This document shows, one piece after another, positions 10,297 through 13,420 of a stretch of 64,000 nt of DNA. Origin of the DNA: Escherichia coli (GTDB lineage Bacteria; Pseudomonadota; Gammaproteobacteria; Enterobacterales; Enterobacteriaceae); the NCBI RefSeq assembly GCF_016026235.1, contig NZ_CP065613.1, one strand, 5' to 3'. Both the position numbers and the translations under genes were made by a program. The notes under the pieces were generated by a model that saw only the letters and a list, made by a program, of their open reading frames with translations, had not been told where the DNA came from and ran no database searches. Numbering within the stretch: position 1 is the stretch's first letter; every line of letters starts with the position of its first letter.

Positions 10297-10436
10297 CTTT
10301 ATCCCTCATCGGAAAATGCGGAATTAAGCATACCCTGCCAGTTATGGTGTTGTCATCCGTCCACACTCGCCACTAAACTGGAAGCAAGACCGTAGGCATT
10401 CCGCTTACGAAAAAATAACGAATTCAAGGAACTAAG

Positions 10437-11063
10437 ATGCTTTGGTCGTTTATCGCTGTCTGTCTTTCCGCATGGCTATCTGTGGATGCATCGTATCGTG
10501 GGCCAACCTGGCAACGCTGGGTGTTTAAACCGTTAACCCTTCTTCTCCTGTTGTTACTGGCCTGGCAAGCGCCGATGTTCGACGCCATTAGCTATCTGGT
10601 GCTGGCGGGGCTGTGCGCCTCACTGCTGGGCGATGCGCTAACCCTGTTGCCACGTCAACGTCTGATGTACGCCATCGGCGCGTTTTTCCTCTCGCACCTG
10701 CTGTACACCATCTATTTCGCCAGTCAGATGACGCTCTCTTTCTTCTGGCCTCTGCCGTTGGTACTGCTGGTTCTGGGCGCGCTGTTACTGGCGATTATCT
10801 GGACGCGGCTGGAAGAGTATCGTTGGCCTATCTGCACGTTTATCGGCATGACGCTGGTGATGGTGTGGCTGGCAGGTGAACTGTGGTTCTTCCGTCCGAC
10901 CGCTCCGGCACTCTCTGCGTTTGTCGGCGCTTCGTTGCTGTTTATCAGTAACTTTGTCTGGCTGGGTAGCCACTATCGCCGACGCTTCCGTGCGGATAAC
11001 GCGATTGCTGCGGCCTGCTACTTTGCCGGTCACTTCCTCATCGTCCGCTCGCTGTATCTCTGA
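10437..11063 (+). CDS. yhhN: TMEM86/YhhN-family inner membrane protein (lysoplasmalogenase-like)
   Basis: 208-aa highly hydrophobic [47 protein letters not shown]... Confidence 0.85.
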
Positions 11064-11069
11064 TAAAAC

Positions 11070-11101
11070 TTGACTCTGGAGTCGACTCCAGAGTGTATCC
11101 T
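11070..11101 (+). promoter_or_regulatory. zntA promoter with MerR-type (ZntR) operator: -35 TTGACT, 20-bp spacer holding a perfect 22-bp palindrome, -10 TATCCT
   Basis: ttgACTCTGGAGTCGACTCCAGAGTgtatcct; palindrome 11073..11094; over-long spacer typical of MerR-family promoters. Confidence 0.75.
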
Positions 11102-11136
11102 TCGGTTAATGAGAAAAAACTTAACCGGAGGATGCC

Positions 11137-13335
11137 ATGTCGACTCCTGACAATCACGGCAAGAAAGCCCCTCAATTTGCTGCGTTCAAACAGCTAACCA
11201 CGGTACAGAACGCCAACGACTGTTGCTGCGACGGCGCATGTTCCAGCACGCCAACTCTCTCTGAAAACGTCTCCGGCACCCGCTATAGCTGGAAAGTCAG
11301 CGGCATGGACTGCGCCGCCTGTGCGCGCAAGGTAGAAAATGCCGTGCGCCAGCTTGCAGGCGCGAATCAGGTGCAGGTACTGTTCGCCACCGAAAAACTG
11401 GTGGTTGATGCCGACAATGACATCCGTGCACAAGTTGAATCTGCGGTGCAAAAAGCGGGCTATTCCCTGCGCGATGAGCAGGCCGCCGACGAGCCACAAG
11501 CATCGCGCCTGAAAGAGAACCTGCCGCTGATTACGCTAATCGTGATGATGGCAATCAGCTGGGGTCTGGAGCAGTTCAATCATCCGTTCGGGCAACTGGC
11601 GTTTATCGCAACCACGCTGGTTGGGCTGTACCCGATTGCTCGTCAGGCATTACGGCTGATCAAATCCGGCAGCTACTTCGCCATTGAAACCTTAATGAGC
11701 GTAGCTGCTATTGGTGCGCTGTTTATTGGCGCAACGGCTGAAGCTGCGATGGTGTTGCTGCTGTTTTTGATTGGTGAACGACTGGAAGGCTGGGCCGCCA
11801 GCCGCGCGCGTCAGGGCGTTAGCGCGTTAATGGCGCTGAAACCAGAAACCGCCACGCGCCTGCGTAACGGTGAGCGGGAAGAGGTGGCGATTAACAGCCT
11901 GCGCCCTGGCGATGTGATTGAAGTTGCGGCGGGCGGGCGTTTGCCTGCCGACGGTAAACTGCTCTCGCCCTTTGCCAGTTTTGATGAAAGCGCCCTGACC
12001 GGCGAATCCATTCCAGTGGAGCGCGCAACGGGCGATAAAGTCCCTGCTGGTGCCACCAGCGTAGACCGTCTGGTGACGTTGGAAGTATTGTCAGAACCGG
12101 GAGCCAGCGCCATTGACCGGATTCTGAAACTGATCGAAGAAGCCGAAGAGCGTCGCGCTCCCATTGAGCGGTTTATCGACCGTTTCAGCCGTATTTACAC
12201 GCCAGCGATTATGGCCGTCGCCCTGCTGGTAACGCTGGTGCCGCCGCTGCTGTTTGCCGCCAGCTGGCAAGAGTGGATTTATAAAGGGCTGACGCTGCTG
12301 CTGATTGGCTGCCCGTGTGCGTTAGTTATCTCCACGCCCGCGGCGATTACCTCCGGGCTGGCAGCAGCGGCACGTCGTGGGGCGTTGATTAAAGGCGGAG
12401 CGGCGCTGGAACAACTAGGTCGTGTTACTCAGGTGGCGTTTGATAAAACCGGTACGCTGACCGTCGGTAAACCGCGCGTTACCGCGATTCATCCGGCAAC
12501 GGGTATTAGTGAATCTGAACTGCTGACACTGGCGGCGGCGGTCGAGCAAGGCGCGACGCATCCACTGGCGCAGGCCATCGTGCGCGAAGCACAGGTTGCT
12601 GCACTCGCCATTCCCGCCGCCGAATCACAGCGGGCGCTGGTCGGGTCTGGCATTGAAGCGCAGGTTAACGGTGAGCGCGTATTGATTTGCGCTGCCGGGA
12701 AACATCCAGCTGATGCATTTGCTGGTTTAATTAACGAACTGGAAAGCGCCGGGCAAACGGTAGTGCTGGTAGTACGTAACGATGACGTGCTGGGTATCAT
12801 TGCATTGCAGGATACTCTACGCGCCGATGCTGCAACTGCCATCAGTGAACTGAACGCGCTGGGCGTCAAAGGGGTGATCCTCACCGGCGATAATCCACGC
12901 GCAGCGGCGGCAATTGCCGGGGAGCTGGGGCTGGAGTTTAAAGCGGGCCTGTTGCCGGAAGATAAAGTCAAAGCGGTGACCGAGCTGAATCAACATGCGC
13001 CGCTGGCGATGGTCGGTGACGGTATTAACGACGCGCCAGCGATGAAAGCTGCCGCCATCGGGATTGCAATGGGCAGCGGCACAGACGTGGCGCTGGAAAC
13101 CGCCGACGCAGCATTAACCCATAACCACCTGCGCGGTCTGGTGCAAATGATTGAACTGGCACGCGCCACTCACGCCAATATCCGCCAGAACATCACTATT
13201 GCGCTGGGGCTGAAAGGGATCTTCCTCATCACCACGCTGTTAGGGATGACCGGGTTGTGGCTGGCGGTGCTGGCAGATACGGGTGCGACGGTGCTGGTGA
13301 CAGCGAATGCGTTAAGATTGTTGCGTAGGAGATAA
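11137..13335 (+). CDS. zntA: Zn/Cd/Pb-translocating P1B-type ATPase ZntA
   Basis: 732 aa; N-terminal metal-binding GMDCAACARKVE, CPC transmembrane motif (LLIGCPCALVIS), DKTGTLT phosphorylation site, GDGINDAPA hinge. Confidence 0.96.
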   Translation: MSTPDNHGKKAPQFAAFKQLTTVQNANDCCCDGACSSTPTLSENVSGTRYSWKVSGMDCAACARKVENAVRQLAGANQVQVLFATEKLVVDADNDIRAQVESAVQKAGYSLRDEQAADEPQASRLKENLPLITLIVMMAISWGLEQFNHPFGQLAFIATTLVGLYPIARQALRLIKSGSYFAIETLMSVAAIGALFIGATAEAAMVLLLFLIGERLEGWAASRARQGVSALMALKPETATRLRNGEREEVAINSLRPGDVIEVAAGGRLPADGKLLSPFASFDESALTGESIPVERATGDKVPAGATSVDRLVTLEVLSEPGASAIDRILKLIEEAEERRAPIERFIDRFSRIYTPAIMAVALLVTLVPPLLFAASWQEWIYKGLTLLLIGCPCALVISTPAAITSGLAAAARRGALIKGGAALEQLGRVTQVAFDKTGTLTVGKPRVTAIHPATGISESELLTLAAAVEQGATHPLAQAIVREAQVAALAIPAAESQRALVGSGIEAQVNGERVLICAAGKHPADAFAGLINELESAGQTVVLVVRNDDVLGIIALQDTLRADAATAISELNALGVKGVILTGDNPRAAAAIAGELGLEFKAGLLPEDKVKAVTELNQHAPLAMVGDGINDAPAMKAAAIGIAMGSGTDVALETADAALTHNHLRGLVQMIELARATHANIRQNITIALGLKGIFLITTLLGMTGLWLAVLADTGATVLVTANALRLLRRR

Positions 13336-13342
13336 GGCAAAC

Positions 13343-13420
13343 CGATCGCAACATTGAGCGCGATCGGTCCCCTCGCTCCTCTGGGGAGAGGGTTAGGGTG
13401 AGGGGAAAAGGCGGCATCGA
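13343..13420. repeat. GC-rich hairpin / Box C-like repeat in the zntA-tusA convergent spacer
   Basis: CCGATCGC-aacattga-GCGATCGG stem-loop followed by cccctcgctcctctggggagagggttagggtgaggggaaaagg; resembles GC-rich enterobacterial intergenic repeats (family assignment uncertain). Confidence 0.35.

Follow-up and report, generated by a model that had tools for sequence, protein, structure and literature searches.

The short region between yhhN and zntA raises the question of what kind of promoter drives the efflux ATPase gene, and how the palindrome found there relates to the unusually distant -35 and -10 elements. The stretch of DNA analysed, 64,000 nucleotides long, is called the window below, and all coordinates refer to it. 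On the plus strand, a -35 hexamer TTGACT (11070-11075; five of six matches to TTGACA) and a -10 hexamer TATCCT (11096-11101; four of six matches to TATAAT, with A2 and T6 kept) were located by direct reading and by script. The spacer between them, CTGGAGTCGACTCCAGAGTG (11076-11095, plus strand), was counted by script as exactly 20 nt, which is 3 bp over the 17-bp optimum. The initial annotation had placed the two hexamers at the ends of the interval 11070-11101, and both are indeed read there with a 20-nt spacer between them.

A perfect 22-bp palindrome, ACTCTGGAGTC/GACTCCAGAGT, covers positions 11073-11094 (strandless; repeat finder and script) and is assigned here as the ZntR operator. According to the repeat finder, its two arms (11073-11083 and 11084-11094) are 11 nt each, abut with zero loop and are 100% complementary, and the dyad axis falls between 11083 and 11084. 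The 22-mer is identical to its reverse complement, and the script found no possible extension. It had been described at first as a perfect palindrome lying inside the 20-bp spacer. The perfection stands; the location does not hold strictly, since 22 bp cannot fit into 20 bp. The operator shares the ACT that forms the last 3 nt of the -35 hexamer, and a single nucleotide (G11095) separates its other end from the -10 hexamer. The earlier wording is almost identical to the shorthand of Permina et al. (2006; PMC1526738), who write of a "22 bp palindrome ... within a 20 bp promoter spacer" and give the ZntR operator consensus as ACTCTGGAGTCGACTCCAGAGT. The operator sequence in the window is the same as this published consensus.

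Downstream of the promoter core, transcription on the plus strand would be expected to start 6-8 nt past the -10 hexamer, at about 11108 (11107-11109), judging from the usual sigma-70 distance between -10 and +1. A Shine-Dalgarno sequence GGAGG was read directly at 11127-11131 (plus strand), 5 nt 5' of the ATG at 11137, and it is kept as GGAG(G/A) among the Enterobacteriaceae leaders. The zntA open reading frame begins 36 nt past the -10 hexamer. It extends over 11137-13335 on the plus strand and encodes 732 amino acids of a Zn/Cd/Pb P-type ATPase, the product of the regulated gene; identified by its ORF and a profile match, it scores 1446 bits against NCBIfam NF033775 (cut-off 1240) over residues 1-732 of 732. 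The upstream gene yhhN (10437-11063, plus strand), recognised from its ORF and from the annotation of the matching regions of K-12 and FDAARGOS_943, is co-oriented with zntA. It ends 6 nt before the -35 hexamer with no terminator between. The gene order yhhM-yhhN-zntA-tusA is that of K-12 and also of the FDAARGOS_943 region.

Comparison with the zntA promoter of E. coli K-12 MG1655 had been suggested as a check. Over the 131 bases from 11030 to 11160 a single mismatch was found, and it lies inside yhhN. The yhhN-zntA intergenic region is the same as in K-12 at every base, including the -35 hexamer, the spacer, the operator, the -10 hexamer, the leader and the first zntA codons. Since both the sequence and the gene context are identical, the site is the K-12 zntA promoter, and nothing in the promoter or in the identity of the flanking genes sets the window apart from the K-12 PzntA/ZntR system. 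The architecture had been reported as known, a positive control rather than a novelty, and the K-12 identity bears this out.

On a larger scale, 5424 complete E. coli genomes have a match that covers at least 80% of the 3-kb yhhN-zntA region (10400-13400), with yhhN and zntA annotated in the E. coli matches listed. Of 5426 complete E. coli genomes, FDAARGOS_943 alone reaches 99% identity or more over this region (99.9%), and 5409 others are 95-99% identical. The host is a somewhat divergent genome of the E. coli lineage and may be Shigella-like or of another divergent lineage. A 30-kb region elsewhere in FDAARGOS_943 (L124, NZ_CP065615.1 3845000-3875000) contains two IS1 copies and several truncated genes or pseudogenes. 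While the 3-kb region mostly falls in the 95-99% class, the 91 bp from 11050 to 11140 reach 99% identity or more in 5361 of 5425 E. coli genomes. By these identities the promoter and leader are more conserved than the flanking coding sequence, a sign of purifying selection. No zntR homologue was found within the 64-kb window, which is as expected because zntR lies 167 kb from zntA in K-12. Of 5426 E. coli genomes, 5425 carry the regulator gene, and we infer from this that the source genome has it as well.

Could such an arrangement arise by chance? A zero-loop perfect palindrome with arms of at least 11 nt appeared in 5 of 200 Markov-1 simulated 64-kb windows, and there are two in the actual window. 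The full geometry, defined as a -35 hexamer with at least five of six matches to TTGACA, TAnnnT at a spacer of 19-20 bp and, between the two, a perfect dyad of at least 7 nt, occurs in the window at a single site, 11070, and any such site was found in 2 of 100 simulated windows. The 32-mer 11070-11101 is present in the window as a single copy even when 3 mismatches are allowed. The PzntA geometry exceeds chance expectation, and a chance palindrome is rejected on both sets of simulations. The other perfect 22-bp palindrome in the window, AACGCCCGCATATGCGGGCGTT at 44959-44980, is followed by TTGCTTTTT and lies 25 nt past the stop codon of a 144-aa ORF (44500-44934). This ORF we take to be uspA, and the palindrome is the uspA intrinsic terminator.

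We consider it nearly certain (probability about 0.97) that the site is PzntA, the chromosomal promoter of zntA, and that it is an activator-dependent sigma-70 promoter of the MerR type, controlled by ZntR and activated by DNA distortion. The same class had been proposed from the sequence at the outset, and it is upheld by the K-12-identical intergenic region, the full-length ZntA downstream and the literature on the same sequence. The near-consensus -35 (TTGACT) and the weak -10 (TATCCT) stand 20 bp apart, 3 bp above the optimum. In the proposed mechanism, sigma regions 4 and 2 would be unable to engage both elements as long as the B-DNA is straight, and basal activity would be low. The regulator, a ZntR dimer whose gene lies elsewhere on the chromosome, would bind the 22-bp palindrome, which occupies the spacer and reaches into the -35 hexamer, and in its metal-free form it would repress the promoter weakly. 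Once Zn(II), or Cd(II)/Pb(II), is bound, ZntR would kink and underwind the centre of the operator. Such a distortion would shorten and re-phase the distance between -35 and -10, allowing RNA polymerase to form the open complex and the ZntA efflux ATPase to be transcribed.

ZntR binding, its footprint and the zinc-dependent activation can be expected here from studies of the identical K-12 sequence, for which Brocklehurst et al. (1999) and Outten et al. (1999) are the sources as cited in PMC3431237 and PMC9909328. According to Hobman, Julian and Brown (2012; PMC3431237), PzntA has the -35 sequence TTGACT and a 20-bp spacer, and the DNase I footprint of ZntR, like those of MerR and CueR, extends from -35 to -10. 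Measured in vivo (Parisutham et al., 2022; PMC9189660), PzntA has a very low constitutive activity without ZntR and shows weak ZntR-dependent repression at low zinc and approximately 10-fold activation at high zinc; moving the operator into a stronger promoter abolished the activation. For Salmonella, Osman et al. (2017; PMC5709419) fitted a single ZntR dimer to each zntA operator. The extra 2-3 bp of such spacers carry the -10 element away from sigma region 2, by 6.8-10.2 Å in distance and 72-108 degrees in rotation, and the activated regulator kinks the operator centre so that -35 and -10 are realigned, as reviewed in PMC9909328 with the structural basis in homologues.

The PDB contains CueR-DNA and CueR-RNAP complexes (4WLW, 6LDI, 6XH7), and CadR structures are also deposited. 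ZntR is represented there by a C-terminal fragment only (1Q08, 1Q09, 1Q0A), with no ZntR-DNA or ZntR-RNAP structure, and for this reason activation at the 20-bp spacer is described by homology. We infer the details of the distortion from CueR, BmrR and MerR, and the compensation of a 20-bp rather than a 19-bp spacer would be an extrapolation from CueR and BmrR.

The length of the PzntA spacer is a point on which published papers conflict: PMC9189660 states 19 bp, whereas 20 bp is given by PMC3431237, PMC1526738 and PMC7911910, the last of which gives 20 bp for both E. coli and an Enterobacter strain. A spacer of 19 bp would make GTATCC (11095-11100) the -10 element of the same promoter and would restore the spacing usual for MerR and CueR; 19 bp is indeed found in most MerR-family promoters (PMC9909328, PMC3431237). 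GTATCC, however, is without the essential A2 and T6, and one of the three papers giving 20 bp shares authors with the ZntR paper of Brocklehurst et al. (1999).

The register was compared across genomes in a scan for ACTCTNGAGTNNACTCNAGAGT with one genome per species, which returned at least 120 loci. The search pattern forced only the ACT of the -35 hexamer and left TTG free. Among the matches listed, a ZntA homologue starts at most 400 nt downstream in 103 of 120 loci, and these zntA-linked loci belong to other Enterobacterales, among them Citrobacter, Salmonella, Enterobacter, Klebsiella, Kluyvera, Pantoea, Erwinia, Providencia, Xenorhabdus and others. TTG precedes the pattern in all 103 zntA-linked loci among the matches listed, making the -35 hexamer TTGACT throughout. 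In the same 103 loci, again among the matches listed, TAnnnT was found at a 20-bp spacer in 100, and at spacers of 17, 18, 19 and 21 bp in none (0/103 each). In the 20-bp register both A2 and T6 are present in 103/103 of the zntA-linked loci among the matches listed; in the 19-bp register neither occurs in any of them (A2 0/103, T6 0/103). The -10 hexamer itself varies among the loci (TATCCT, TATGCT, TAGGAT, TAGAGT, TAAGAT and others). The arms of the operator are invariant, and its two central bases take 10 variants (103 loci, among the matches listed), a freedom that would fit bases unread by the protein.

On the basis of these 103 loci, the PzntA spacer is read as 20 bp and not 19, which settles the disagreement in the literature, and a 19-bp spacer at this promoter is very improbable. 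Two observations had been named beforehand as able to overturn the promoter assignment, misplaced hexamers and a standard 17-bp spacer, and neither was found: only the 20-bp register gives TAnnnT among the matches listed, and the 17-bp register gives it nowhere in these loci. In the window, a consensus scanner covering spacers of 16-18 bp only found no sigma-70-like promoter with such a spacer in 10400-11500, and thus no conventional promoter is hidden at the position of PzntA.

A palindrome of this kind might also act mainly as an RNA hairpin and not as a protein operator, being either an intrinsic terminator of the minus strand, with the stem followed by CAAGUUUUAU, or a terminator or 3'-end structure of yhhN. 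A terminator scan does report a hit on the minus strand (11094-11073, tail CAAGTTTTAT), the palindrome folds in read-through RNA into a 9-bp stem with a 4-nt loop, and five of the 120 pattern matches are terminator-like with A-run/T-run flanks (L017, L083, L111, L112, L117; among the matches listed). These five matches, however, are unrelated to zntA. There is no convergent minus-strand gene that such a terminator could serve, zntA being on the plus strand, and the T-run derives from variable bases 5' of the -35 hexamer that are unconserved across the loci. With a T-run that other genera do not share and no convergent gene, the minus-strand flag (11094-11064) is probably an artefact of the A-rich stretch 5' of the -35 hexamer. 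On the plus strand the stem is followed by GUGUAUCCUU with no U-tract. A terminator role would also leave unexplained the fixed distance to TTG and the TAnnnT register in the 103 loci (among the matches listed), as well as the published ZntR binding (PMC1526738, PMC3431237, PMC5709419). A mainly RNA-level function is less credible still than a 19-bp spacer, and the palindrome is best read as the ZntR operator of PzntA, with room left for a secondary role at the RNA level in yhhN read-through transcripts.

The leader contains another structure, which overlaps the promoter core. The inverted repeat GTATCCTTCGGTTAA / TTAACCGGAGGATGC (11095-11135, plus strand; arms 11095-11109 and 11121-11135; repeat finder and RNA folding) forms 15 pairs around an 11-nt loop and pairs the -10/discriminator region with the Shine-Dalgarno region of zntA; it is complete only in RNA begun 5' of PzntA. 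The RNA 11064-11165, which corresponds to yhhN read-through, folds with -40.8 kcal/mol (z = -6.6) into two hairpins, the operator and the 15-pair helix. RNA from the expected +1 (~11108) is no more structured than chance would give (z = 0.17), and its Shine-Dalgarno sequence is free. In 48 distinct Enterobacteriaceae leaders, 89% of the cells of the extended 18-pair helix are paired, compared with 26-57% in slid controls. Covariation in these leaders is weak, with double changes at two pairs only, and RNAalifold run on the 48 leaders did not recover the anti-Shine-Dalgarno hairpin but gave a weak unrelated 8-pair structure of -2.7 kcal/mol. An Rfam scan of 10800-11400 found no such element, the only match being a chance hairpin-like one to mir-1179 (20 bits against a gathering score of 80). 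The support for the helix consequently comes from conservation rather than covariation, and we claim no conserved RNA element.

It is possible, but on balance rather doubtful, that the promoter core also serves as a translational insulator. According to this folding model, yhhN read-through RNA would hide the zntA ribosome-binding site, and ZntR-started transcripts, beginning inside the 5' arm, would leave the Shine-Dalgarno sequence free. The idea resembles the IS10 transposase gene, where fold-back inhibition silences read-through transcripts. A limited literature search yielded no description of a zntA leader or read-through mechanism.

The loop of the leader hairpin differs between genera. 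At 11110-11120 the E. coli loop TAATGAGAAAAAACTTA is shorter than the TAATGAGAAAATTATCATTA of most other Enterobacteriaceae, and the E. coli lineage appears to have lost approximately 3 nt there. The longer loop TAATGAGAAAATTATCATTA forms an inner palindrome, TAATGA/TCATTA, and includes an ATTATCA half that by our own comparison we take to be Fur-box-like.

A further similarity was noted at the beginning of the coding sequence, where zntA codons 2-5 (11139-11150, GTCGACTCCTGA) match the right operator half GTCGACTCCAGA at 11 of 12 positions. An exact copy of GTCGACTCCAGA is found at the zntA start in many loci of the Enterobacter group and related ones, and ATGTCGACTCC(A/T)GA is present in 20 of the 103 zntA-linked loci among the matches listed. 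A second ZntR half-site at this position was considered and rejected: the Thr/Pro codons show synonymous changes from genus to genus, and the copy shows no co-variation with the operator centre. For these two reasons the copy is probably a matter of shared ancestry or coincidence and no conserved half-site.

A related known system is the PcopA/CueR promoter of E. coli K-12, which also lies 5' of a P-type metal-efflux ATPase gene and which was read from its sequence as TTGACC, 19 nt and TAACCT with the 21-bp dyad ACCTTCC-N7-GGAAGGT. In both promoters the dyad runs from the fourth base of the -35 hexamer to 1 nt before the -10 hexamer, and the operator exceeds the spacer by two bases. PcopA has a 19-bp spacer and a 21-bp dyad of the 7-7-7 type, whereas PzntA has a 20-bp spacer and a 22-bp dyad of the 11-0-11 type; the two spacers differ by one base, and so do the two operators. 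The length of the operator thus follows that of the spacer, and the registration to the hexamers stays the same. The half-site sequence and the metal, Cu(I), are different in PcopA/CueR. For CueR, activation by distortion has been solved structurally in the CueR-DNA and CueR-RNAP complexes mentioned above (PMC9909328).

The PmerT/MerR system of Tn501/Tn21 likewise has the -35 sequence TTGACT (PMC3431237) and an over-long spacer with the regulator dyad, and metal binding turns the repressor into an activator (PMC7911910, PMC9909328). Its spacer, however, is 19 bp with a 7-4-7 dyad (PMC1526738, PMC7911910) and not 20 bp as in PzntA. In addition, merR is transcribed divergently from the PmerT region (PMC1526738), whereas zntR is unlinked to PzntA.

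Also related are the CadR/PbrR-type promoters and a group of unassigned metal-sensing MerR-family promoters; the latter, with PzntA-like TTGACT, an operator of the ACTCTGGAGT..ACTCCAGAGT type and TAnnnT, were encountered here in metagenome-assembled genomes (MAGs). Seven such loci from Acidobacteria, Omnitrophota and other MAGs (L004, L031, L049, L055, L057, L062 and L090) have TAnnnT at 20 bp and lie directly 5' of genes for metal-type MerR-family regulators. The proteins of L004, L031 and L055 were checked against NCBIfam and fall under every equivalog cut-off there. An eighth locus of this kind, L021 from Gemmatimonadota, appears to use the 19-bp register. The MAG promoters drive the regulator gene itself in an autoregulated operon, whereas PzntA drives an ATPase gene that is unlinked to zntR.

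PzntA is an already known feature and not a new one. Its value here is that of a positive control, as a MerR-type promoter could be recognised from raw sequence with the coordinates, the hexamers and the spacer length all correct. The evidence from the 103 loci is a useful by-product on spacer length, where the published papers conflict. If the insulator idea were true, ZntA protein would be made only from ZntR-activated transcripts, and the pairing of the Shine-Dalgarno region would be relevant to the PzntA fragments used as biosensors for zinc, cadmium or lead. Judging from the MAG loci, the ZntR-type operator and the 20-bp geometry reach far beyond Enterobacterales, in an autoregulatory arrangement.
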